Below are positions 1,075-33,245 of a DNA stretch of 34,255 nucleotides, piece by piece. The DNA is taken from IMG/VR virus record IMGVR_UViG_3300045988_071774, positions 1 through 34,255 of that record, one strand, 5' to 3'. Position 1 is the stretch's first letter. The number at the start of each line of letters is the position of its first letter. Below the pieces are notes generated by a model. That model was not told the origin of the DNA. It was given only the letters and a program-made list of their open reading frames with translations, and did no database searches. Made by a program: the position numbers and the translations under genes. This DNA comes from a virus.

Positions 1075-1335
1075 TCAGCGCACGGACGGGGCCTGGTATC
1101 GGGGTGAGGCCGTTCGGGCCGCTGCGGCCCGGAGGGCGGCCTTCCTGCGGTTGCTGGACCCGGTGGCCTTGATGGCGACCGGCAGGCCGACGATGAAGCC
1201 GAGGACGGCGACCATCGTGACGTGACCGGCGACCAGGGCGGCGGTGGAGGCCAGGACCCAGACGATGTTGAGGGTGGCGACCCAGGCGATCAGAGCGGCG
1301 CTCGTCCGGCTGGGGAGCGGGGCGGTGGTGTTCAT
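1075..1335 (-). CDS. small membrane protein (86 aa, two predicted TM helices), first gene of the leftward operon
   Basis: Hydrophobic stretches ALIAWVATLNIVWVLASTAALVAG and VAVLGFIVGLPVAI. SD GAGGAGGAA precedes ATG 1335. Confidence 0.75.
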   Translation of the reverse strand: MNTTAPLPSRTSAALIAWVATLNIVWVLASTAALVAGHVTMVAVLGFIVGLPVAIKATGSSNRRKAALRAAAARTASPRYQAPSVR

Positions 1336-1376: not shown

Positions 1377-1405
1377 AATCTACGGCGTGTCGACACGCCG
1401 GTCAA
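1377..1405 (-). promoter_or_regulatory. leftward early promoter: TTGACC, 17 bp, TAGATT
   Basis: The minus strand reads TTGACC (1405..1400), a 17-nt spacer, then TAGATT (1382..1377). This places the start about 35-45 nt upstream of ATG 1335 and fits the sigma-70/HrdB-type TTGACN-17-TANNNT pattern. Confidence 0.6.
1383..1400. promoter_or_regulatory. perfect 18-bp palindrome CGGCGTGTCGACACGCCG filling the promoter spacer (candidate operator)
   Basis: The sequence is self-complementary and sits exactly between the -35 and -10 hexamers of the leftward promoter. Confidence 0.55.
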
Positions 1406-1416
1406 CCCCCGCCGCG

Positions 1417-1430
1417 GTGACGCTGGTCAC
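1417..1430. promoter_or_regulatory. GTGAC-N4-GTCAC dyad, copy 1 (GTGACGCTGGTCAC)
   Basis: Inverted repeat with 5-bp arms in the divergent control region. The same dyad occurs at 4995..5008, and a 9/10 copy at 29398..29411. Confidence 0.5.
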
Positions 1431-2589: not shown

Positions 2590-3843
2590 ATGGAAACCGC
2601 CACCATCGAACAATGCCTCATCGGCTCCGCCCTCGCAGGCGAGGAAGCGCAAACCGACACCACCTGGTCCACCACCCCGAACATGATCGTCAACACCCGG
2701 TACGCCACCCTCTGGGGAATCATCCGCGACCACTGGGCAATGGGCAGAATCCCCACCCCCGCTTCCGTCCTCGCTGAAGTCCGGAATCCGGCCAGCGGCG
2801 AGGACATCCTCGACTGCGTGCACGCGTCCGTGAACCCAGCCGACGCCGACCACTACGCCCGCCTCATCCAAGAAGCCGCCGCCAAGCGGGACGTCCTCGA
2901 CGTACTCGCCCGCGCCGAGCAGCTCCTACAAGGAGACTCCACCGCCGCCGAGGTAGCCTCCTGGGCGCGGTCCCGCATCGGCAGCACCGCACCCGACAGC
3001 AACACCGTCTCCATGCCATCCCTCGTCGACCAGTGGTACACGGCCAAGAAAGCGACCGGCGTCCATACCCCATGGTCCTGCGTCAACGAGATCGTGGGCA
3101 TGCACCGCGACGGCGGACTCCACGTCATCGGCGCCCGCCCGGCAGTCGGCAAGACCCTCTACGGCCTGTACCTCGCGGCCTGCGCCGCACGCAACGACCG
3201 GCACGTCCTCTACGTGTCCATGGAAATGCCGGCCCGCGAGCTGCTCCCCAGGCTCCTGTCACAGGCCACAGGCGCCGCGCTGAAGTACACGACCAGGGAA
3301 GAAGCCGCACCCCCCGAGCTCGCTGACACCCTCAATCGCGCCGCAGCCCAGATCGCGGCCCTACCCATCCACATCAGCGACAAAGCCGGCATGTCCGTCG
3401 AGCGGGTCGCCGCCCTCGCACGCACCCTCCACCACAAGAAGAAGCTCGGCGCCATCGTCATCGACCACATGCAGCTCCTCGCCCCGTCCCGCGGCGCGCC
3501 CGGCTCCTCACTCAGGGAGATGGTCACCTACCAGTCGAGAGCCCTGAAAGAGCTGGCCCTCGAACTCGACGTCCCCGTCTTCGCCCTGTCGCAGCTGTCC
3601 CGCGCCTCCGAGATGAGAGACGACCTCACCCCGAAGCTCGCCGACCTCCGCGAGTCGGGCAGCATCGAACAGGACGCGGATACCGTCACCCTTCTGTTCC
3701 TGCCCGTCCGCAACGGCGTCCCCGATCGGACGCGACTCGCCGTGTCAGTCGCCAAGAACCGGCACGGCGCAACAGGAGACACCGAGCTCATCCGCCGACC
3801 CGCCATGGCCGTCCTCGCAGAACCCACCCCGCAAGGGCTCTGA
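2590..3843 (+). CDS. dnaB: DnaB-family replicative helicase (417 aa)
   Basis: Walker A GARPAVGKT, Walker B IVIDHMQLL, and the motifs SQLSRASE and DLRESGSIEQDADTV. SD AAAGGAA precedes ATG 2590. Confidence 0.9.
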   Translation: METATIEQCLIGSALAGEEAQTDTTWSTTPNMIVNTRYATLWGIIRDHWAMGRIPTPASVLAEVRNPASGEDILDCVHASVNPADADHYARLIQEAAAKRDVLDVLARAEQLLQGDSTAAEVASWARSRIGSTAPDSNTVSMPSLVDQWYTAKKATGVHTPWSCVNEIVGMHRDGGLHVIGARPAVGKTLYGLYLAACAARNDRHVLYVSMEMPARELLPRLLSQATGAALKYTTREEAAPPELADTLNRAAAQIAALPIHISDKAGMSVERVAALARTLHHKKKLGAIVIDHMQLLAPSRGAPGSSLREMVTYQSRALKELALELDVPVFALSQLSRASEMRDDLTPKLADLRESGSIEQDADTVTLLFLPVRNGVPDRTRLAVSVAKNRHGATGDTELIRRPAMAVLAEPTPQGL

Positions 3844-4418: not shown

Positions 4419-4874
4419 ATGCCATGGACCACGTCCGACCGGCGTCAACGCCTGCCAACGAACTGGAACAAACTCAGGAAGCAAGTTCTCGCAAAAGCAA
4501 ACTACAAATGCGCCGGCCTTGACCCAGCCATCACCCCACCACCTACCAGTAGGGAGGTACAGAGGGGTGCCCGCCGGTGGCACCACCCAACCTGCACCAT
4601 GCGCGCAACCGACGTCGACCACATCAACGCCGGCGACAACCATGAACTGAGTAACCTCCAAGCCCTGTCGCACGCCTGCCACACAGCCAAGACCACACAC
4701 GAGAACGCCGCAGCCAAGGCACGCATACGCGCCACAGCCACACGCGAACAGCCGCCACACCCATGCGCGCGCGCAACACAAACAAACAAAAAAGAAAAAC
4801 AAAACAAAGCGAAAACGAAAACAAACGAAAGCAAGACCCGAACCGAAATGACGCGACGCGAAACTTGGAATTGA
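4419..4874 (+). CDS. HNH endonuclease (151 aa as an ORF; the last ~45 aa are low-complexity read-through)
   Basis: The N-terminus RRQRLPTNWNKLRKQVL and the core DVDHINAGDNHELSNLQALSHACHTAKT match the H-N-H pattern typical of phage terminase-associated HNH proteins. No obvious SD is present. Confidence 0.8.
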   Translation: MPWTTSDRRQRLPTNWNKLRKQVLAKANYKCAGLDPAITPPPTSREVQRGARRWHHPTCTMRATDVDHINAGDNHELSNLQALSHACHTAKTTHENAAAKARIRATATREQPPHPCARATQTNKKEKQNKAKTKTNESKTRTEMTRRETWN

Positions 4875-4909
4875 AAGAAACGGAAGCCGAAAAAAGCGAA
4901 ACCCCCCCC
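4775..4909. repeat. A-rich low-complexity tract ending in a C8 run
   Basis: The sequence reads acaaacaaacaaaaaagaaaaacaaaacaaagcgaaaacgaaaacaaacgaaagc...gccgaaaaaagcgaaacccccccc. This is very unusual for a high-GC genome. It overlaps the 3' end of the HNH ORF. Confidence 0.8.
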
Positions 4910-4994
4910 GGCACCGACTCCCCTCCCCCCGCACACGAAAGACCGGGGGAGATAGCAATCAGGGAGTGGCATGCTCGGGATGACAGCGTTTGGG

Positions 4995-5008
4995 GTGACG
5001 GCGGTCAC
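4995..5008. promoter_or_regulatory. GTGAC-N4-GTCAC dyad, copy 2 (GTGACGGCGGTCAC)
   Basis: Same half-sites as 1417..1430. It lies about 80 nt upstream of the lysin start codon. Confidence 0.45.
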
Positions 5009-5088
5009 TTCGGTCGCGTGCGTGGCGGCACTCGGCCAACCCCGTAACCTTGTCGTAGGCGGCCGACCGGCCGCCAGGAAGGAGAGGC

Positions 5089-6510
5089 ATGGGCGTGAAT
5101 TCCATTGCTGCGTCCCAGATGCAGTACTGGTGCCAGGCCGGGCCGGGGAAGCCGCAGGGCGGGGCCTACTCGGTCGGCTACTCGCAGCCCGACCGCCTGC
5201 TCTCGTACCGCGACAGCGACGAGGACGGCTGGCTGCAGCGCGACTCGAACATGGACTGTTCGTCCGCGGTGCGGGGGGCGATCAACTACGGCCTCCACAA
5301 GGCGTGGGGGTACGACTGGGGTGACAGCCGGCTGCTGCCCGAGTCGACATGGACGGGGTCGATCCGTTCCGAGCTGACATCCCGCGGCTGGTACGAGGTC
5401 CCATGGTCGGATGCGTCCCTGTACCCGGATGGCGGCTTCCAGGACGGTGACGTGGTCCTGTCGGAAGGTGCTTCCGGTGGTGTCGGCCACGTTGCGATGG
5501 TTGTCCCGGATGGGCTGGCTGAGGCGTGGATCGCCGAGGACGGCACGATCGACGGGTACGTGGGCGATCAGACCGGCTATGAGACCAGAGTCGGCGACTA
5601 CGCGACCCACGCATACACGCGCGGCGGCAGGTGGACGCACTGCCTGCGCCTGCCTGAGGGCGGTGACAGCCCTTCTGGCGGCCGTTCTTCGTCGTCCGGG
5701 TACTCAGGTAGGACGATCGCGAATATGGGCGCCCTTGTGGCTGCTGCGGACGCTGTGGGGCTGCCCCGGTGGGTCGCATTGGGTCTTGCGGAGCAGGAGT
5801 CGAACGGCGAGAACGTGTTCGGTCACGACGCCGGCGGCGCCTACCAGGGCGCCGGCGAGGTCACAGAGGCGAAGTTCCGTGACTTCTACGCTCAGATCAG
5901 CGCCGGGGCCACGTCGAACGGCGTCGGCCCGACTCAGGTGACATACCCCGGCTACTTTTTCAACGACCCGGATCGCGCATGGTGGGACCCGCAGGCCTCG
6001 TCAGAGGTCGGCTTCGGGATCCTGGCCGGCTACCTGAGTGGCGACTACTCGTGGGACTCCCTGTGCCGGGCTGGATCCACGTACAACTGCGGTAACCCGA
6101 ACGACCGCTACGAAACGTACGGGCAATCTTTCGCGTCCCTGGCCTGGGCGTGGAAAGATCAGCCGCTCGGCGACTATGCCGGCGGTGGTGCATCATCTAC
6201 CGATGAGGAGCTGGAAATGTCCGCTGCTATTGACCTTCTCACTGAGATCCGCGATTCGCTGCGCGCCGGCAAGGAGGGTGACCACTACGCCGGCGACATG
6301 GCCTGGTACTCCGGGGCGATCCGCGACGAGCTGCGCTCCTTGAACTCGAAGGTGCAGGTCATCTCCGACGCTGTCACCCCCGGTATCGCGGGCGTCAAGT
6401 TCGACGGGGACCTGTACAACGCGGTCAAGGAGACTCGGAAGTCCCTCGCCGCCATCGAGCAGCACCTGAACGCCCAGCGGGACGGCCGGAACGCCGTCGC
6501 CGACTCGTGA
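5089..6510 (+). CDS. two-domain peptidoglycan hydrolase (probable endolysin): N-terminal Cys/His peptidase (NlpC/P60- or CHAP-like) plus lytic-transglycosylase-like domain (473 aa)
   Basis: SD GGAAGGAGAGG precedes ATG 5089, and the frame is closed by TAG at 5056. The Cys motif is NMDCSSAVRGA and the His motif is GGVGHVAMVV. The SLT-like motifs are LGLAEQESNGENVFGHD and GVGPTQVTYPGYF. Membrane-protein genes follow it. Confidence 0.75.
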   Translation: MGVNSIAASQMQYWCQAGPGKPQGGAYSVGYSQPDRLLSYRDSDEDGWLQRDSNMDCSSAVRGAINYGLHKAWGYDWGDSRLLPESTWTGSIRSELTSRGWYEVPWSDASLYPDGGFQDGDVVLSEGASGGVGHVAMVVPDGLAEAWIAEDGTIDGYVGDQTGYETRVGDYATHAYTRGGRWTHCLRLPEGGDSPSGGRSSSSGYSGRTIANMGALVAAADAVGLPRWVALGLAEQESNGENVFGHDAGGAYQGAGEVTEAKFRDFYAQISAGATSNGVGPTQVTYPGYFFNDPDRAWWDPQASSEVGFGILAGYLSGDYSWDSLCRAGSTYNCGNPNDRYETYGQSFASLAWAWKDQPLGDYAGGGASSTDEELEMSAAIDLLTEIRDSLRAGKEGDHYAGDMAWYSGAIRDELRSLNSKVQVISDAVTPGIAGVKFDGDLYNAVKETRKSLAAIEQHLNAQRDGRNAVADS

Positions 6511-7447: not shown

Positions 7448-9182
7448 ACGAAAGGCGGTCACCGGTGACGATCCGCGTCTGCTCGCTGAGATCCGCGCCT
7501 ATTACGAGGAGCGTCTGAAGTCCCGGCCGGCCGCCCTGCCGGGGAGCGACGGCATGTTCCCGGCGGTTGCGCACGGCCCCGTGTGGGCCCTGAAGGACGG
7601 CAACTGGCTGCTGCCCGAGCGCACCATCGGCTGGGACGTGTCCTGCTGGGCGTCCGCCCACCTCGCCGGCCCCGGCGGCGGCCCGTTCCTGTTCACAGAC
7701 GAACAGTTCCGGTTCATGCTCTGGTATTACGCGACGGACTCGGCCGGGAGGTTCCTGTCACCCACGGTGGTTCTGCAGCGATGCAAAGGGTGGGGTAAGG
7801 ACCCTCTGGCCGGTGTTGTCGCCCTCGCGGCGCTCTGCGGCCCATCCGTCCCATTCGTGGGGGAGGACGGTGTGGTGCGGGGGCGTCGCGAGGAGTCGCC
7901 CTGGATTCGCCTGCTGGCGGTTTCCCAGCAGCAGACAGAGAACACGATGGGAGCGATCCGCGCCCTAGCGCCGCCGGACGTCCGCGAGGACCTCGCCATC
8001 CGAGTGGTAACGACCCTGGTTCGCCCGAAAGACGGGAGCGCAGGCTTCATCACCGCGATCACGTCAAACCCCGACGCAGCCGAAGGGGCGCGCGCCACCC
8101 TGACCGTGTGCAATGAGACACAGAACTGGACACGGTCGAACTCAGGCATGGCAATGATGGGCGTCGTCCGCGGTGACGCGGCGAAGTCCCCGCCGGAACG
8201 GCAGGCCCGAGTCCTGCATATCTGCAACGCACCTCGCGTTGGTGTCGAATCGGTGGGGTTGTCCGTCCGTGAAGGCTGGGAAGAGCACGGCGGCAAGGAT
8301 GCCGGCCTCATGTACGACTCGCTGGAGGCGCCCCCGGATGCGCCGCTGACAGCGGAAGCTGCCCCTGTAGTGATTGAGTCCGTCCGCGGTGACGCGTCCT
8401 GGCTGACTCCAGACCGGATCGTTCAGGACATCATGGACCCGTCCACGCCGCCGTCGGAGTCGCGCAGGAAGTGGTACAACCAAGTGGTCGCATCCGAGGA
8501 CGCGTGGCTGACCCGCGAGGATTGGGATTCCTGCCTCGATAAGGAACTGCCCGCCCTGGAGCCCGGCGATGAAGTGGCGGTGTTCTTCGACGGCGGCAAG
8601 TCCGATGACTCGACCGCCTGCGTGGCCGTCCGCATCAGCGACGGCGCCCCGTTCGTGGTCGGCGTGTGGCAGCGGCCACCTGACGCCCGCGCCCATAACT
8701 GGATCGTTGACCGGGACGCGGTCGATAAGCGCGTCCGCGACTTCTACGACCACCATAACGTGGTCGCCCTATGGGCAGACCCATCTCACGCCGTCGAGGA
8801 CGAGAGCATGGAGCAGTTCTGGGACTCGGTCGTGGACGGCTGGCATCGCGACTACGGGCGCCAGCTCCGCCTGAAAGCCAGCCCGGGACACTCTGTGAAG
8901 TGGGACATGTCCTCGCCCACGAACCAAAAGGCGTTCGTCCATGCCGTGCAGGTCACTACCACCGACGTGCTCGAGCACGCATTCGTCCATGACGGCGATG
9001 CCAGGCTGCGCGCCCACGTCCTCCACGCTGTCCGCTACCCGACTCGGTTCGGCATGTCGATCTCGAAGGACGGCCGGGAGTCGCGCAAGAAGATCGATCT
9101 GGCCGTGTGCATGATCGGCGGTAGGATGATCCGTAACATATGGCTGAATAGCCGCCGCCGGAGCAGAGGATCGATATGGTGA
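7431..9182 (+). CDS. terL: terminase large subunit (583 aa from GTG 7431)
   Basis: The call rests on size, position and a Walker-A-like KGWGKD motif. The start is uncertain: GTG 7431 overlaps terS by 17 nt, and the next ATG is at 7554. Confidence 0.85.
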   Translation: MARPRERKAVTGDDPRLLAEIRAYYEERLKSRPAALPGSDGMFPAVAHGPVWALKDGNWLLPERTIGWDVSCWASAHLAGPGGGPFLFTDEQFRFMLWYYATDSAGRFLSPTVVLQRCKGWGKDPLAGVVALAALCGPSVPFVGEDGVVRGRREESPWIRLLAVSQQQTENTMGAIRALAPPDVREDLAIRVVTTLVRPKDGSAGFITAITSNPDAAEGARATLTVCNETQNWTRSNSGMAMMGVVRGDAAKSPPERQARVLHICNAPRVGVESVGLSVREGWEEHGGKDAGLMYDSLEAPPDAPLTAEAAPVVIESVRGDASWLTPDRIVQDIMDPSTPPSESRRKWYNQVVASEDAWLTREDWDSCLDKELPALEPGDEVAVFFDGGKSDDSTACVAVRISDGAPFVVGVWQRPPDARAHNWIVDRDAVDKRVRDFYDHHNVVALWADPSHAVEDESMEQFWDSVVDGWHRDYGRQLRLKASPGHSVKWDMSSPTNQKAFVHAVQVTTTDVLEHAFVHDGDARLRAHVLHAVRYPTRFGMSISKDGRESRKKIDLAVCMIGGRMIRNIWLNSRRRSRGSIW

Positions 9183-26289: not shown

Positions 26290-27621
26290 ATGGCTACGTT
26301 GGAGCCATCAGAGAGTCGTCGCGTGCGCACCGAGGCACTGTGCGGCAGTGTGCAGGTTTCCGCATACGGGGCGCCGGACGGCGCCAGGTGGGCCCGGCAG
26401 GCTGCCGCGCTCGGCGGGACGCACATGCGGCTGACGAACATCTTCGAGGAGTCGACCGCCCAGGCGGCCGCTAACGGCGGGGACAAGCTCGGCGAAATGG
26501 ACAACAAGGTGCGCGCCGCCGTAGACGCCGGGTTCCGTATCGTCGTTGACTTCTCCTACTACCGGAACCTCCTCATTAAGGAGAAGACGAACCCGTACTT
26601 CCTGGAGTGGCCGGCTTGGCTGTCGCCTATGGCGCAGATCCTTGGGCGTCAGTTCCCGGGCGCCGGCTACGACTACGCGCACGCCCCTGAGGTGGCCGCT
26701 GTGGCTTTGTCGGGCGAGCCGGACATCCTGTGGGGTGACAACAATCCGATCCAGCAAGCGAAGTCGGCCGACCAGTACCTGTGGGCGCTCCGGCAGCAAG
26801 CGATCGCGGTCCGGAAGTTGGACTACGACGGCCCTATCACTGCCGGCGGGTTCAATCACTTGAACTCTGATGGGCCTGACCGGGGTGCGTACGGCGATGC
26901 GGTGGACCGACTCGCTGGCGTGCCGTGGGTGGACGCCCTGACGTTCCACGGGTATGACGGGCCGGCGAAGCTGAAGTCTGGCATCTCCAAGTTCGTGGAC
27001 GTCGCCCAGTCCGGGGGGAAGATCGCGCTCATGGAGGAGTGCGGCTTCAACTCTGACAACACGACGGATGCTGTCAGAGCGGAGAAGTTCCGGGCGTTGG
27101 TGCCGTGTGTTGCCGCGTCCGGCCTGGCGGGCCTGGGGCTGTGGAACGTCGGGGACTACAACGGGTATGACGTGCGTGCCACCCATCCTGAGGCGATGAA
27201 GGCGTGGAACGAGGTTGTTGCCGCGCTGCCCGTGTTGGGGCGTGCTGGCGCGGCTGCGCCGTCTGGTGGTGGTTCCGCTCCGCTGCCGACGCCGCCCCAG
27301 TGGGTGGTGTTCTCGGGTGATGCCACCCCCGGTGACACGTTCATTGCTGCTCTGGAAGGGAACGCTCTTTGTGTGGGCCCTCGTTCGGAGTGGGGGACGG
27401 TGACGGTCCCTGCAGTCGGGCAGAAGCGACTGGCTACGATCCCGGCGCAGGTGCTCGGCGACCGGAAACCTCAGCGCGTCTGCTATCCGCTGCTGAAGAC
27501 CGACGGCACGTCGGACGGGTCGACAGTTGAGGTGTGGCCGAACAAGACCGTGGTCACGAACGTCGTGCCGAATGGTGGCGGGAAGCGTATCTGCCCGATG
27601 TTGTATTCGCCTCTTGCGTGA
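26290..27621 (+). CDS. glycoside hydrolase, clan GH-A/GH5-like TIM barrel, with a ~110-aa C-terminal beta-rich domain (443 aa)
   Basis: SD AGGAGG. The ordered motifs fit GH-A: RIVVDFSYY, ALSGEPDI (acid/base Glu), TFHGYD, IALMEECGF (nucleophile Glu) and GLGLWNV. The family assignment is unverified. Confidence 0.55.
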   Translation: MATLEPSESRRVRTEALCGSVQVSAYGAPDGARWARQAAALGGTHMRLTNIFEESTAQAAANGGDKLGEMDNKVRAAVDAGFRIVVDFSYYRNLLIKEKTNPYFLEWPAWLSPMAQILGRQFPGAGYDYAHAPEVAAVALSGEPDILWGDNNPIQQAKSADQYLWALRQQAIAVRKLDYDGPITAGGFNHLNSDGPDRGAYGDAVDRLAGVPWVDALTFHGYDGPAKLKSGISKFVDVAQSGGKIALMEECGFNSDNTTDAVRAEKFRALVPCVAASGLAGLGLWNVGDYNGYDVRATHPEAMKAWNEVVAALPVLGRAGAAAPSGGGSAPLPTPPQWVVFSGDATPGDTFIAALEGNALCVGPRSEWGTVTVPAVGQKRLATIPAQVLGDRKPQRVCYPLLKTDGTSDGSTVEVWPNKTVVTNVVPNGGGKRICPMLYSPLA

Positions 27622-27656
27622 CTGTCGCCACAGGCGCCCGGTGGGACACTGAGCCT

Positions 27657-28130
27657 ATGCATGAGATTTCGTTCCCTCCGCTCCCGGCGGAGCTGATCGG
27701 CGCCGCCTTGGCCGGTGTCGCCTCGTGGGTGGGGTGGTTGTTCGCGAGGGCTGACCGGACCGCAGACCGACGCGTTGAAGCGTTGGAGGCGGTCACGAAG
27801 GCGTTGACTCGTAGGGTGCAGCTCCTGGAGGAAGGACGTGAAAAAGCGGAGACGGCGCGCGACCTCGCTGAGGAGGAGGCGCACCGTCTCCGCGTCCGCA
27901 CGTTCCGACTGGAGGAGTACGCGGCGGCTTTGCTGAGGTGGGGTGTTGGTCTGGTGGAGATGATGGCGCCGTCAGAGCAGCCGCCTAAGCCGCCGTCACC
28001 GCCAGCCGACCTCGATGATGTGGGCTATCTGGGTGGCTGCGGCGTGTCGGCTGGTCCCTTTCCAGCGGACGCCGGCGGCTGCCACGTACCAGGTGACGCC
28101 TCGGCGGGTGAGGGTCACTCGGGTTCCTGA
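27657..28130 (+). CDS. N-terminally membrane-anchored coiled-coil protein (157 aa), possible holin or lysis accessory
   Basis: The TM segment is LIGAALAGVASWVGWLF, followed by a helical charged region. The 3' 135 nt overlap the convergent gene 27996..28253, so the true 3' extent is uncertain. Confidence 0.55.
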   Translation: MHEISFPPLPAELIGAALAGVASWVGWLFARADRTADRRVEALEAVTKALTRRVQLLEEGREKAETARDLAEEEAHRLRVRTFRLEEYAAALLRWGVGLVEMMAPSEQPPKPPSPPADLDDVGYLGGCGVSAGPFPADAGGCHVPGDASAGEGHSGS

Positions 28131-28253
28131 CGGGCGCCGGCCTCTGCGGATGGTCGCTTCGTGGAGGCCGGTCGCTACCTTCAGCTGGGTGCAGTCGAGG
28201 CCGCATGCGTCGAGGATGGTGAGGGCTTCGCTGATAACTCCGGCGGGGGTCAT
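27996..28253 (-). CDS. small HTH DNA-binding protein (85 aa), last gene of the leftward operon
   Basis: The HTH-like segment is CTQLKVATGLHEATIRRG. ATG 28253 directly abuts the stop of the upstream gene (TGAATG). In the overlap with 27657..28130, third-position G+C is higher in this frame. Confidence 0.6.
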   Translation of the reverse strand: MTPAGVISEALTILDACGLDCTQLKVATGLHEATIRRGRRPSGTRVTLTRRGVTWYVAAAGVRWKGTSRHAAATQIAHIIEVGWR

Positions 28254-29072: not shown

Positions 29073-29315
29073 TCAGAGGGTGTTGAGTGCGTCTGTGTCG
29101 AGGCGTCCCATGACGGTCAGCCAGGCGCAGAGGTCGCTGTGCAGGTCGCCGCTGGGGGAGCCGTCGTAGGGGAGGCCCCGCTGGTCGACGTCCTGGAAGA
29201 CCTGCTGGTCGCCGAGGGTGAGGGTCCACCGGGTGAGGGGGTTGCCTGCCGCGTCAGTGCGGGGGGTGGCGTCCAGCTGGGCGGCCTGCAGGGGGGAGGT
29301 GGTGTCGGTGTTCAT
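29073..29315 (-). CDS. hypothetical protein (80 aa from ATG 29315)
   Basis: ORF track lists 29073..29339. The internal ATG 29315 has SD AAAGGAAA, so it is preferred. Confidence 0.65.
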   Translation of the reverse strand: MNTDTTSPLQAAQLDATPRTDAAGNPLTRWTLTLGDQQVFQDVDQRGLPYDGSPSGDLHSDLCAWLTVMGRLDTDALNTL

Positions 29316-29356: not shown

Positions 29357-29385
29357 ATGTTTCTGGTGTGCGGCGTAGACGTCAA
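29357..29385 (-). promoter_or_regulatory. possible internal leftward promoter: TTGACG, 17 bp, AAACAT
   Basis: The minus strand reads TTGACG (29385..29380), a 17-nt spacer, then AAACAT (29362..29357). It lies upstream of the small-gene cluster. The -10 element is imperfect. Confidence 0.3.
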
Positions 29386-29397
29386 GGCCGCCTGGCC

Positions 29398-29411
29398 GTG
29401 AGGTCGGTCAC
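29398..29411. promoter_or_regulatory. GTGAC-N4-GTCAC-like dyad, copy 3 (GTGAGGTCGGTCAC, 9/10)
   Basis: It lies in the 238-bp non-coding gap, just upstream (in minus-strand sense) of the putative promoter. Confidence 0.35.
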
Positions 29412-29429: not shown

Positions 29430-29479
29430 GAACTCCGGCCTTCCCGGGCGCCAGGGCGGGGGCGGGAGGGCCGGAGTTC
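29430..29479 (-). terminator. 16-bp stem-loop downstream of the metallophosphoesterase gene
   Basis: GAACTCCGGCCTTCCC (29430-29445) pairs with GGGAGGGCCGGAGTTC (29464-29479), with one G-U position and an 18-nt loop. Confidence 0.5.
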
Positions 29480-29553: not shown

Positions 29554-30708
29554 TCAGGGCCAGAGGCGCCAGCCGGACGAGGTTCCCCCGCTCAGCTCAA
29601 ACGTCAGCAGGGCCGGCCGGGACGAATCCCCGCTGGCGTTCTGAAACCAGGCGCTGCCGGGGTCGATGGTCGGGGCGCAGATGATCTGTCGGCTGTCTCC
29701 GACCGTCTGCACGGAGAATGAGTGCCAGTGGCCGTGCAACAGCACCCTGGCGTTTTGCATGCCCGCCACGCAGCCGAACGCCTGCCCGCGGAACCAGTCC
29801 GCGACATGGTTCTTGCTGCCGGCTGCGTGACCGTGAGTGACCCCCATGACCGTCCCGTCGGCGGCACGCACGGTCAGCGACTCCAGTCGCCGTTCCGGCG
29901 TCTCGAACTGGACGTGCTCGTAGCCGGGACGGCCAGCAACGATCTGCTGGATGTTGTCGGCGATCAGCAGCCCGTAGTCATCCCCGGGGAACGACGCCCG
30001 GTTGCTGCGGCCGATCCCTACGCGGACCTGGCAGTGGTTCGACGGGACCGCCACATAGGTGACCTCCGGCGCGGCCGGCGCCAGAACCCGGAGTGTGTCG
30101 GCGAGCAGCGCCTGCGCCGTCCTGATCTGGTAGGTGAGCGGCAGGTCGTTGGTCTGCGCCTGGCTGGCCGTGTTGCTGAACCCTTCGGTTGAGTCGCCGC
30201 AGTCCACGAGGATGACCTTCCGGTACCGGCCGGCCACATGGTCGGCGATCCGGGCGGTGGCGGCGCGGACCCGGCGGATGGTCTCCTCGGTGCCGCCTCC
30301 CCGGTCGGTCTTCCCGATCTGCAGGTCGGACACCACGACCACGACCGTCGACTGGGACTTCACGTCAGGGGCCGGCGAGACGGGCTCCGCGAAGATCGGA
30401 GCCAGGTCCTCGAACCGCTTCGCCTGCACCTCGCCGCGCTCGATAACGCCCGGCTTGTACGTGATCTTCTCGTACGACCCGTCAGCCAGACGCACTGTCT
30501 TCCCGCGGGCCGAGATGGCCTCGACGGGCACTCCGAAGTACTCGTCTACACCGCCCTTGCTCATCTCACTGCGCCGCTTCAGTGCCTTCCTGTGCCGCCT
30601 GACAGCGGCCTCCGAGGTGCCGTACTCGTCGGCGATGGCCTGGTTGGTGCGCCGCTGATGCTGTGGAAGGGCATCGTTCTCGAGGATCGCCTCGTCCAAA
30701 GGTGTCAC
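29554..30708 (-). CDS. calcineurin-type metallophosphoesterase (Mre11/SbcD-like fold) with N-terminal HTH (384 aa)
   Basis: Motifs VVVVSDLQIGK, LVDCGDSTEG, VPSNHC, THGHAAG and LLHGHWH. The N-terminal segment TNQAIADEYGTSEAAVRRHRKAL is HTH-like. GTG 30708 forms a GTGA overlap with the nrdH stop. Confidence 0.75.
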   Translation of the reverse strand: MTPLDEAILENDALPQHQRRTNQAIADEYGTSEAAVRRHRKALKRRSEMSKGGVDEYFGVPVEAISARGKTVRLADGSYEKITYKPGVIERGEVQAKRFEDLAPIFAEPVSPAPDVKSQSTVVVVVSDLQIGKTDRGGGTEETIRRVRAATARIADHVAGRYRKVILVDCGDSTEGFSNTASQAQTNDLPLTYQIRTAQALLADTLRVLAPAAPEVTYVAVPSNHCQVRVGIGRSNRASFPGDDYGLLIADNIQQIVAGRPGYEHVQFETPERRLESLTVRAADGTVMGVTHGHAAGSKNHVADWFRGQAFGCVAGMQNARVLLHGHWHSFSVQTVGDSRQIICAPTIDPGSAWFQNASGDSSRPALLTFELSGGTSSGWRLWP

Positions 30709-32209: not shown

Positions 32210-32880
32210 GAGATCACCGCCATGGGGGTGCCGTTGAGGTCTGCGCGGTACTGGTCCCAGCCGCCGGTGCGACCGGTCTTGACCGTTCTGACAACGAGCA
32301 GACCGTCTCCCTGTTCGTAGCCGATGCCGCCGCCGGCGACCACGGCGACAGGGGTGTCGTTTCCGTACCGGAAAGCGGCGTCCTGCAACTGTCCCATGAG
32401 GCGGCCGATGGTGAGGGTGCCGGCTTCCTGGGTGGCGTAGTCGCGGATTGTGGCACCGGTGCCGGTGGATCCGAAACCGCCCTCGCCGCGGTCGGTGTTG
32501 TCGTCCACGCTGCCGACCTCCACGTCGACGTCCGGCAGCGGCAGGATGATCAGCTGGCAGATCCGCTCCCCGGCGCTAACAGGGACCGGATCGGCGAGGG
32601 CAGCGATCCTGACCTTCAGGTCGCCGCGGTACCCGGAGTCAATGATCCCCGCGCCGTGGGGGATCGTCAGCCCTTTCGTCCCGGCGGAGGACCGAAGGGC
32701 CAGCTGCCCGAAGTAGCCGTCCGGGATAGCGACCCGGACGCCGAGGTTGATCGAGTACACGGCGCCCGGGCGGACGAGGCAGCCCTGCCCTTCGGGGACG
32801 TGCAGGTCCAGGCCGGCGTCCGTGTCGTGCGCCCGGGTCGGGTCTTGCACGTTCATTGTCTTCTGGATGGTGACCTTCAT
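32206..32880 (-). CDS. dut: trimeric-type dUTPase with a ~85-aa C-terminal extension (224 aa)
   Basis: Motifs AGLDL, RSSAG, GIIDSGYRGDL, ERICQLI and RGEGGFGSTG. ATG 32880 has SD GAAGGGA. The ORF continues about 85 aa past motif V. Confidence 0.85.
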   Translation of the reverse strand: MKVTIQKTMNVQDPTRAHDTDAGLDLHVPEGQGCLVRPGAVYSINLGVRVAIPDGYFGQLALRSSAGTKGLTIPHGAGIIDSGYRGDLKVRIAALADPVPVSAGERICQLIILPLPDVDVEVGSVDDNTDRGEGGFGSTGTGATIRDYATQEAGTLTIGRLMGQLQDAAFRYGNDTPVAVVAGGGIGYEQGDGLLVVRTVKTGRTGGWDQYRADLNGTPMAVIS

Positions 32881-33245
32881 GAGTGTTCCCTTCTGTTCCA
32901 TGGGGACCGGTCCCGGCCCCTCGTCAGGTCGTGCGGCTCTGCGTGGTAGCTGTCGATGTCGTCTTCGTCCCATGCTAGTGGAGAGTGCGCGCCGGCGTCA
33001 ACTGCGGCCTTGTGGGCGGCCCGCGACTCGTGGTTCACGGGGGCGGGATTGCATTGGTTGCGAGACCAGGCGCACGCGATGAGGAGTCTGTCCTCTTCGG
33101 GGATGTACTCGCCTGCGCGGCCCTTTTGTGTCGTCTTCAGTTTCACGCCGGCCATGTCGGCGATCCGCTGCTCGGAGTGGCCGATCCACATGAGGGACAG
33201 GACCCGCCGCTGCACTCCGATCGGGGTGACGGTTCGGAGTTTCAC
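32877..33245 (-). CDS. putative HTH DNA-binding protein (122 aa)
   Basis: GTG 33245 forms a GTGA overlap with the recT stop, and the stop forms an ATGA overlap with the dut start. RRVLSLMWIGHSEQRIADMAGVKLKT is HTH-like. Confidence 0.6.
   Translation of the reverse strand: MKLRTVTPIGVQRRVLSLMWIGHSEQRIADMAGVKLKTTQKGRAGEYIPEEDRLLIACAWSRNQCNPAPVNHESRAAHKAAVDAGAHSPLAWDEDDIDSYHAEPHDLTRGRDRSPWNRREHS

Follow-up and report, generated by a model that had tools for sequence, protein, structure and literature searches.

A GTG-N8-CAC dyad at a fixed distance upstream of conserved promoters in a family of presumed actinophages

Sites that resemble in part the dyad described here are known both from phages and from their hosts. 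The P2 Ogr/P4 Delta late promoters carry TGT-N12-ACA centred near -55; P2 late promoters have poor -35 boxes and need a phage zinc-finger activator and, like p4 of phi29, P2 Ogr acts from sites upstream of the -35. In UP elements, which are rich in A and T and not palindromic, alpha-CTD reads the minor groove; their distal subsite in E. coli lies at about -57 to -47. Rex, which occurs in Gram-positive bacteria including the Actinobacteria, is a repressor whose operators, TTGTGAA-N4-TTCACAA, usually overlap promoters. Finally, E. coli Crp activates from positions -41.5, -61.5 and -71.5, and Crp class I sites are expected to tolerate shifts by whole helical turns.

The actinobacterial Crp/GlxR regulators are those whose sites come closest. 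The consensus is GTG(N)6GNCAC for S. coelicolor Crp and GTG(N)8CAC for C. glutamicum GlxR (PMC10033298), the latter also being given as TGTGA-N6-TCACA (PMC7999487), while that of M. tuberculosis CRP is NGTGNNANNNNNCACA (PMC2844151). At M. tuberculosis whiB1 two CRP sites stand in tandem 21 bp apart, that at -58.5 activating and that at -37.5 repressing (PMC2844151), and M. smegmatis ahpC has an activating Crp site at -81.5 (PMC4218801); the two activating positions agree roughly with the E. coli phase. Residues R180 and R185 of CAP contact both G's of TGTGA via the recognition helix (PMC10187061). The dyad analysed below belongs to this known kind of element, the transcription-factor dyad upstream of a promoter.

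The DNA studied, called the window here, is the whole stretch of 34,255 nt of the IMG/VR virus record IMGVR_UViG_3300045988_071774. It has a G+C content of 65.5% and a complete-looking gene set of siphovirus type. Rightward genes encode an HTH_36/MarR-like protein (1762-2565), a DnaB-like helicase (2590-3843), an HNH-type ORF (4419-4874, assigned from a reading of its translation and without a Pfam match) and, as the first rightward late gene, an endolysin-like protein (5089-6510, with its ATG at 5089), after which TerS, TerL and the structural genes follow in the same direction. The leftward DNA-metabolism operon includes genes for RecT, dUTPase, DUF3310, a PD-(D/E)XK nuclease and SSB, as well as an NrdH-like glutaredoxin and an SbcD-like exonuclease (29554-30708) followed by small ORFs. 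Megablast gave no match to any closely related cultured phage; the homologues of TerL, almost all of them from actinophages, are no more than 45.5% identical to it. The same genome of about 34.2 kb has been assembled from human metagenomes, and IMG/VR holds dozens of relatives of 33-36 kb. The phage presumably infects a high-GC actinobacterium of the human microbiota; searches for this host by megablast and with the lysin and terminase proteins did not lead to it, and a scan of genome contigs gave no more than one phage contig of 43 kb, which had been binned with an Atopobium MAG. Neither a repressor nor an integrase was found among the scanned window proteins, nor a WhiB protein among the window ORFs.

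The preliminary description of this DNA had listed three copies of the dyad, and a search of both strands shows their sequences and coordinates to be exactly right. Copy 1 (1417-1430, forward-strand sequence GTGACGCTGGTCAC) and copy 2 (4995-5008, plus strand, GTGACGGCGGTCAC) are exact matches, and copy 3 (29398-29411, forward-strand sequence GTGAGGTCGGTCAC) matches GTGA-N6-TCAC. Copy 2 lies 81 nt before the ATG at 5089, close to the 80 nt or so that had been claimed as its distance to the lysin start. All three copies sit, again as described, in gaps of the gene map, by which non-coding DNA makes up 7.2% of the window. Exact GTGACNNNNGTCAC occurs only at 1417 and 4995 in an exhaustive search of both strands; these two occurrences compare with 0.04 expected, and none of 100 shuffles contained two or more. 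When one mismatch is allowed the enrichment is lost, with 5 matches against 2.5 expected, which is not significant. The extra matches are at 27618 and 29544, and the former was set aside as a further site, lying as it does within a 35-nt gap which leaves no space for a promoter. GTGA-N6-TCAC has three matches (1417, 4995 and 29398) against 0.81 expected, a number which 6 of 100 shuffles reach.

The rarity attributed to the dyad holds for the exact 5+5 form (0.04 expected), but the claim had ignored multiple testing and concerned a pattern that was chosen after looking. In the window, 71 types of palindromic 5-Nk-5 dyad (k = 0-10) recur at least twice; those that recur entirely in non-coding DNA are GTGAC-N4-GTCAC and one tandem hairpin pair, where about 0.37 would be expected. 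Because the motif was picked post hoc and so many dyad types recur, the within-genome statistics alone are suggestive but not decisive. There is no overall enrichment of the looser GTG-N8-CAC (14 occurrences, four of them non-coding, against 16.5 expected). When the window is scored with a PWM built from the relatives, the three copies occupy ranks 1 to 3 (19.9, 18.8 and 17.1 bits), all of them non-coding, with copy 3 the best match (19.9 bits) and copy 2 the third.

Several other readings of the palindrome were discarded. Restriction-site avoidance is ruled out by the frequency of GTSAC half-sites, which at 117 against 114.5 expected are neither avoided nor enriched. The dyads are not intrinsic terminators or hairpins: the stem would be only 5 bp long, a T-run is absent, and at none of the copies is a terminator called by the scanner. 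Variants found in relatives, GTGAC...CTCAC and GTGAC...GCCAC, disrupt stem pairing. An everted arrangement of the same half-sites (GTCACCGGTGAC), which had been put forward as a related sequence, is present at 7458-7469, but inside the terL reading frame, and it is absent from 8 relatives; being coding and not conserved, it was taken to be noise.

On the transcribed (minus) strand copy 1 reads GTGACCAGCGTCAC and is followed, after 11 G/C-rich nucleotides (cgcggcggggg), by TTGACC. The latter opens the leftward early promoter at 1377..1405 on the minus strand (TTGACC, 1405-1400; 17-nt spacer; TAGATT, 1382-1377), which drives the gene at 1075-1335(-) and the DNA-metabolism operon running across the window start. 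It is the sole call in a promoter scan of positions 1300-1800, with 0.0 expected in shuffles, and no other consensus promoter in the window is both non-coding and sensibly oriented. The layout dyad-11-TTGACN-17-TAGATT is retained in 17 of 20 relatives. In an alignment of 21 sequences GTG and GTCAC are invariant and the 4-nt spacer is variable, the information content being 1.93 bits per column in the half-sites, 1.20 in the spacer and about 1.35 in the flanks.

Copy 3 reads GTGACCGACCTCAC on the transcribed (minus) strand, with TTGACG beginning after 12 nt. This hexamer would be the -35 of an internal leftward promoter at 29357..29385 on the minus strand (TTGACG, 29385-29380; 17-nt spacer; AAACAT, 29362-29357), which would drive the gene at 29073-29315(-) and the small genes downstream of it. 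Its -10 is too weak for a scanner call. The TTGAC is kept in most aligned relatives, with a conserved RBS and ATG after it, and this conserved box, 12 nt downstream on the minus strand, fits the promoter-like sequence that had been noticed beside copy 3. Of the two halves of copy 3 the promoter-proximal one is degenerate, whereas the opening G, T and G are conserved in 92%, 95% and 100% of 37 aligned relatives. Across 37 sequences the half-sites carry 1.35 bits per column, the spacer 0.66 and the flanks 0.6-0.9. Between the exonuclease gene and copy 3 there is a terminator-like hairpin (29430..29479, minus strand), whose stem-loop is retained in relatives despite sequence changes and is in many of them followed by a T-run; the window's own hairpin lacks a T-run and is not called by the terminator scanner. 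A distant clade carries GTGACGAGCATCAC at the exonuclease stop codon, with a terminator hairpin directly after it and no TTGAC downstream. This sequence lies 22 nt upstream of TTGTGT-17-ATATAG, one helical turn farther than the other sites, and may be the positional equivalent of copy 3.

Within the phage family the geometry is fixed. At the loci of clades A, B and C, with exonucleases that share 51-92% identity with that of the window, the gap between GTG-N8-CAC and the next TTGAC is almost exclusively 11 or 12 nt. The early promoters of clade B read GTGTCGGACGTCAC-11-TTGACT-17-GAGACT, and promoters of clade C read GTGAYGAGGAACAC-12-TTGACC-17-ATATAT-7 nt-ATG; in both, the spacer and -10 sequences are unlike those of clade A and the dyad gap is still 11 or 12 nt. 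What is common to all clades is only GTG, CAC and the spacing. Among 100 distinct cases of TTGACN-17-NANNNT taken without preselection, 27 have GTG-N8-CAC as the 14-mer that stands 11 nt before the -35. By the geometry of the hexamers the dyad would cover about -60 to -47 and be centred at -53.5 to -55.5. Clade C promoters look leaderless, and if transcription starts at the ATG their dyad centre would be at about -55.5.

The three copies differ in the promoter that accompanies them. Copy 1 has the elements of a sigma-70/sigma-A promoter; copy 3 has TTGACG-17-AAACAT, with a weak -10; copy 2 has only GTGGCG-17-TAACCT, which the scanner does not call. At all three the half-sites are peaks of conservation in the alignments and the spacers are variable. 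For copies 1 and 3 we regard the dyad as a real, conserved control element. The earlier view that every copy lies upstream of a transcription unit holds well for these two, which sit 11 and 12 nt before a conserved -35, but less well for copy 2, which keeps its distance from the probable cos end and not from a promoter. A CI/Cro-type operator was also considered and rejected: the dyads lie entirely upstream of the -35 (with the gap of 11-12 nt), they are single at each promoter, and no repressor was found among the scanned proteins.

Copy 2 requires separate treatment. In 41 relatives from four clades its GTG and CAC are conserved at 95-98%, and the information content is 1.70 bits per column in the half-sites, 1.32 in the spacer and about 1.0 in the flanks. 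Position 11 is C in 83% of the relatives. The second half-site is GCCAC or GACAC in close relatives, and among them only L096 has GTCAC as well; the exact GTCAC half-site is therefore nearly private to the window phage. The distance from copy 2 to a conserved TAGCAA is a constant 42-43 nt in all four clades. Many contigs begin around TAGCAA and two show fold-back artefacts there, and because contig starts and fold-back artefacts cluster there a physical (cos) end is likely near 4945-4960. Copy 2 is located 42 nt inside this probable left genome end and 36 nt upstream of TAACCT. TAACCT (5045-5050) would be the -10 of a putative weak rightward promoter at 5022-5050 (plus strand), with GTGGCG (5022-5027) as its -35 region and a 17-nt spacer; the scanner makes no promoter call near copy 2 and no TTGAC box follows it. 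A second GTG-N8-CAC, GTGCGTGGCGGCAC, at 5018..5031 on the plus strand, has its centre 23 bp downstream of that of copy 2 and overlaps this GTGGCG; it is among the four non-coding occurrences of that pattern, and its conservation is limited to the closely related lysin clade. Copy 2 is also spanned by an ORF (4971-5324) in a frame that differs from the lysin frame. A coding explanation of its conservation was rejected, since it is nucleotides and not amino acids that are conserved between clades.

Because the distance of copy 2 to TAGCAA is fixed but that to the nearest -10-like hexamer depends on the clade (36 nt vs 13 nt), its role is ambiguous: it may lie in late-operon control, in packaging, or in both. 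A purely packaging role, which would concern copy 2 only, would make it a cosB-like site for end recognition, bound by TerS or by a bending protein, with a likeness to the other copies that is partly coincidental. The constancy of the 42-43 nt in four clades while the -10-like hexamer moves, the missing TTGAC and promoter call, and the GCCAC that replaces GTCAC in most relatives all fit such a role. So does the HNH endonuclease gene immediately upstream, as an HNH gene beside cos is typical of HNH-assisted cos packaging modules. We nevertheless think it rather unlikely. The 95-98% conservation of GTG and CAC comes with an 8-nt spacing identical to that of the promoter dyads, copy 2 is the third-best PWM match in the window, it precedes the first late gene, which needs a late promoter, and it is accompanied by the second GTG-N8-CAC 23 bp on, centre to centre.

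The module extends well beyond this family. IMG/VR was scanned with the pattern GTGACNNNNGTCAC-N11/12-TTGAC-N17/19-TANNNT and, for comparison, with three variant patterns. The real dyad at a gap of 11-12 nt from the -35 was found in at least 119 stretches and the everted control GTCAC-N4-GTGAC at the same gap in 6, an enrichment of the composite of at least 20-fold. Moving the real dyad to a gap of 16-17 nt gave 21 stretches and to 21-22 nt gave 26, so that at these distances the composite is at least 5-fold rarer than at 11-12 nt. One position is thus strongly preferred, and helical periodicity is absent. The 119 loci among the matches listed fall into 31 sequence-unrelated groups with G+C contents of 35-70%. 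The largest group among these matches comprises 60 loci with 98 sites, with up to five promoters within a few kb which lie among small early genes; in the large carrier group the 11-nt gap is A-rich. WhiB, a transcription-factor family known to be restricted to Actinobacteria and their phages, was recognized by a local profile search in ORFs of four carrier groups, the representative from the largest group matching PF02467 with E = 7e-16. Another group is Streptomyces phage Lannister, which has the module at the 3' end of its exonuclease gene, upstream of gp34. Counting as actinophage-linked the WhiB-encoding groups, Lannister and the window's own family, such groups hold 87 of the 119 listed loci; 24 of the 31 groups are without a host assignment, which leaves a restriction of the module to Actinobacteria tentative.

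These matches also extend the motif. Although the scan fixed only GTGAC...GTCAC, the unconstrained flanks among the matches listed are T in 64% and A in 76%, so the element is TGTGAC-N4-GTCACA; the three copies of the window are without this T and A, which are also those of TGTGA-N6-TCACA. An A at spacer position 3, which is orientation-specific, is found in 80% of the matches listed and in 75% of the window family. The carriers share DnaB-like helicase, dUTPase, SSB, metallophosphoesterase, endonuclease VII and WhiB families, but no regulator family common to the carrier groups was found among those sampled, whose loci are partial and may conceal a small phage protein held in common. A limited literature search found no earlier description of the dyad-promoter module, and both its fixed, non-canonical position and its recurrence in many unrelated actinophages appear to be undescribed.

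Since the same module is present in many unrelated actinophages without a shared regulator, a host protein conserved across the Actinobacteria is its most likely partner. The invariance of GTG and CAC, together with the number of phages with actinobacterial hosts that carry them, fits a conserved host regulator. Where the preliminary description had left the choice between a phage HTH protein and a host regulator, the host regulator is now favoured and a phage protein has become less likely. Our leading but tentative candidate, to which we would give somewhat less than even weight, is a host factor of the CRP/FNR family, with Crp/GlxR as the best choice. Here the dimeric helix-turn-helix factor would dock at one fixed position upstream of sigma-A-type promoters, on a site with the core GTG-N8-CAC and the full form (T)GTGAC-N4-GTCAC(A), matching TGTGA-N6-TCACA. 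In the window it would occupy copy 1 at the early promoter and copy 3 at the internal promoter behind the exonuclease gene, and copy 2 with its weaker neighbour would provide sites between the cos end and the first late gene. The factor would modulate, and probably stimulate, the recruitment of RNA polymerase, and phage early transcription would in this way be coupled to host physiology. What the data show are the sites, how they are conserved, their fixed geometry and wide occurrence, and their agreement with the Crp/GlxR consensus; protein binding, the identity of the binder and the sign of its effect are things that we infer.

The dyad is likely to act like a CRP-type promoter-proximal site, though its identity as a Crp/GlxR site is unproven. 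In sequence the agreement is good: GTGA-N6-TCAC is present in all three copies, GTG and CAC are the most conserved columns, and all three copies fit GTG(N)6GNCAC. Placement agrees less well, as the centre predicted from the hexamers (-53.5 to -55.5) has no whole-turn alternatives and, near -54, would be helically out of phase with the known Crp activation sites. A further point against Crp is that the copy 1 promoter is near consensus, with no obvious need for an activator. A broader proposal, which we hold with considerable reserve but regard as possible, is that actinophages share an undescribed module, TGTGAC-N4-GTCACA 11 nt upstream of a consensus -35, that recruits a conserved actinobacterial factor in a non-canonical geometry limited to one position. 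This factor would be either Crp/GlxR, acting at about -54 unlike class I or class II, or a new regulator or RNA-polymerase contact.

Another component of the host could fill the same role, either a different regulator (Rex-like, or a CRP/FNR paralogue) or RNA polymerase itself through a UP-like contact with alpha-CTD. We judge this unlikely. The single rigid position from -60 to -47, which is that of the distal UP subsite in E. coli, with no helical periodicity is what recommends it, together with the association of the dyad with early promoters that are near consensus and presumably strong, several of which often occur in one phage, the A-rich 11-nt gap of the large carrier group, which resembles a proximal UP subsite, and the GTGA-N6-TCAC core held in common with Rex operators. 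UP elements, however, are A/T-rich and are not dyads, and HTH dimers that read the major groove typically recognise a GTG...CAC whose centre varies; we know of no actinobacterial UP consensus. A UP element proper was rejected, as its position fits (-60 to -47) but the dyad contains G and C and the gap in the window is G/C-rich. Rex is opposed by the fifth position of the half-site, which is A in its operators (GTGAA) and C in the dyad.

It is doubtful that the binder is a protein encoded by the phage which would exert feedback on early and middle transcription through the dyad. The candidates are the N-terminal segment of the exonuclease (29554-30708) and the proteins of 85 aa (27996-28253) and 122 aa (32877-33245). 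The exonuclease segment is the most interesting of them: it is present in every locus of the dyad-bearing clades A-C, it is better conserved than the catalytic core (95, 81 and 62% against 87, 72 and 50% in clades A, B and C), HTH profiles match it several times below threshold (E = 0.004-0.07), and copy 3 stands directly behind the exonuclease gene, as the Lannister module also follows an exonuclease gene. The 122-aa protein is likewise present in clades A to C, but the 85-aa protein has no match in the clade C loci sampled. All HTH assignments of the three candidates are below the Pfam cut-offs, so that the HTH labels they had been given are sub-threshold or unsupported; that of 1762-2565 survives for the N-terminus only, and marginally, with 25.2 bits for HTH_36 against a cut-off of 25. 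A metallophosphoesterase representative from another carrier group is without an N-terminal HTH extension. More generally, no fewer than 31 unrelated groups carry this dyad at this offset and in this orientation without a regulator-like family in common, and early promoters must fire before phage proteins exist.

That the recurrence in the window is a functionless product of chance is very improbable in spite of the 71 recurring dyad types (with about 0.37 all-non-coding recurrences expected), the one-mismatch matches at chance level and the nearly private GTCAC of copy 2, given the position-specific conservation in dozens of relatives from three clades, the 11-12 nt offset and the at least 20-fold enrichment in IMG/VR, and for copies 1 and 3 the comparative data rule it out.

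Returning to a host factor of the CRP/FNR family, if host Crp/GlxR is wired into the early promoters of many actinophages, phage expression would be tied to the cAMP and metabolic state of the host. Phage-host control would then have a layer that is largely unexplored in the Actinobacteria, which include Mycobacterium, Streptomyces and Corynebacterium as well as human oral and gut members. Should the factor be activating, the rigid geometry at -54 would imply a contact between activator and polymerase unlike those of E. coli class I and class II. If the module is shared as proposed above, it would be a general 'early-promoter enhancer' of actinophages and a portable part for strong or regulated promoters in Actinobacteria. 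It forms a compact signature by which promoters of actinophages might be annotated in metagenomes and low-GC contigs recognized as actinophage DNA, and it is a candidate part for expression systems in Actinobacteria. For the window genome itself, the analysis positions the leftward early and internal promoters and suggests a control region for the late operon next to cos.

In several ways the dyad resembles the elements with which we began, and none matches it in all respects. Like the E. coli UP element it holds a fixed position directly before the -35 of strong phage or early-type promoters. With the Rex operator it shares the GTGA-N6-TCAC core and the four-base centre, the fifth base being C here and A in Rex. 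The dyads of the P2 Ogr/P4 Delta promoters are alike in standing before the -35, centred near -55, in a set of phage promoters, but their half-sites and spacing differ; no Ogr-like zinc-finger activator was found among the scanned proteins. The Crp/GlxR sites (M. tuberculosis Rv3676, C. glutamicum GlxR, S. coelicolor Crp) have in common with it the 16-bp TGTGA-N6-TCACA dyad with its GTG...CAC core and the placement upstream of promoters, and the tandem CRP sites of whiB1, 21 bp apart, may be compared with the window's sites at 4995 and 5018, 23 bp apart. In contrast to Crp/GlxR sites, the centre lies near -54 and not at -58.5, -61.5, -71.5 or -81.5, the position shows no whole-turn periodicity, conservation is strong at C6 and G11, and the promoters are near consensus rather than weak. 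Sites of Sinorhizobium meliloti Clr (HGTYHC-N4-GRWACA, PMC10187061) also have a variable spacer of four bases between a conserved C6 and G11. Clr is alphaproteobacterial, whereas the carriers of the present dyad are actinophages, and positions 4, 12 and 13 are G, T and C here as against Y, R and W in Clr sites; since Clr sites show both C6 and G11, the CRP superfamily does admit their conservation around a 4-nt spacer.

A cluster of short repeats immediately downstream of the DnaB-like helicase gene (2590-3843) is likely to be the replication origin of the phage, operating either through host DnaA or through phage iterons. It is composed of nine DnaA-box-like 9-mers of the TTATCCACA type, in both orientations, between 4030 and 4250. 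A motif count gave 10 such 9-mers in the entire window, against 1.8 expected.

Several conserved elements surround the leftward early promoter (TTGACC, 1405-1400; TAGATT, 1382-1377). Alignment of clade A, one of the groups of related ~34-kb phages, identified a perfect 16-bp palindrome, GGCGTGTCGACACGCC, at 1384-1399 within the promoter, where the -35 and -10 boxes are 17 nt apart and the palindrome takes up nearly all of the space separating them. Each of the 21 clade A sequences carries it unchanged, and none was found in clades B, C and D. It looks like a separate repressor operator. Directly beside the first copy of the GTGAC-N4-GTCAC dyad (1417-1430) are two tandem copies of a 15-bp palindrome, GGCTCAAAATGAGCC (1452-1466 and 1476-1490). 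Because both copies covary in relatives while their arms remain complementary (GTGCCA...TGGCAC, GGAAC...GTTCC), their sequences suggest specificity-switching operators or iterons, or alternatively a hairpin. They are followed in the divergent control region by a 40-nt block, CCAAACCTTATCCAAGAGAATAAACACCCCCCTACCCCCC (about 1491-1531), which is near-invariant among the aligned relatives and includes a DnaA-box-like sequence, TTATCCAAG. Further along, the leader of the HTH_36/MarR-like gene (1762-2565) carries a conserved G+C-rich hairpin, GGGGCCCGGG...CCCGGGCCCC (about 1677-1712), with compensatory changes affecting both arms in three related loci (L014, L019 and L021). No T-run follows this hairpin.

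Dyad-like sites also occur at gene ends. In the window, GTGACTGTCGCCAC (27618-27631), a site of the GTGRC-N4-GYCAC type with one mismatch, shares bases with the 26290-27621 stop codon. It lies in the 35-nt gap preceding a probable gene (27657-28130), a space too small for a promoter. In clade C, a second dyad is found at the end of the exonuclease gene, overlapping its stop codon. In our own reading of the sequences, this dyad is located 22 nt upstream of a TTGTGT -35-like box, one helical turn further than in the dyad-promoter module (11-12 nt), and a terminator hairpin lies between the two. The promoters of clade C loci L064-L077 take the form TTGACC-17-ATATAT and the ATG is 7 nt past ATATAT, a spacing which implies that these mRNAs would be leaderless. 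In a group of contigs of ~38-50 kb (L170, L226, L256, L284 and L286), the module was seen by eye to start right after an apparent tRNA 3′ end (...GGTTCGATTCCTGCCCGGCTCAC).

The SbcD-like exonuclease (29554-30708) includes an HTH-like N-terminal segment of ~70 aa (...TNQAIADEYGTSEAAVRRHRKAL...). Across clades this segment is better conserved than the catalytic core (95, 81 and 62% against 87, 72 and 50%).

The region at about 4945-4960, which includes a conserved TAGCAA (4953-4958), is the start or end point of many related contigs, two of which show fold-back artefacts there. This indicates a probable physical (cos) end of the genome, so that the window would be a circular permutation. The probable end is flanked by an HNH-type ORF (4419-4874), accompanied by a strongly A-rich tract (4740-4900), and by the first late gene.

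By sequence comparison, the window is mosaic relative to its kin. One set of phages (e.g. contig ..._143348) shares 94-96% identity with it in the endolysin but only 72-75% in the exonuclease. The early region of the window matches another clade, with which lysin identity is only 53%.
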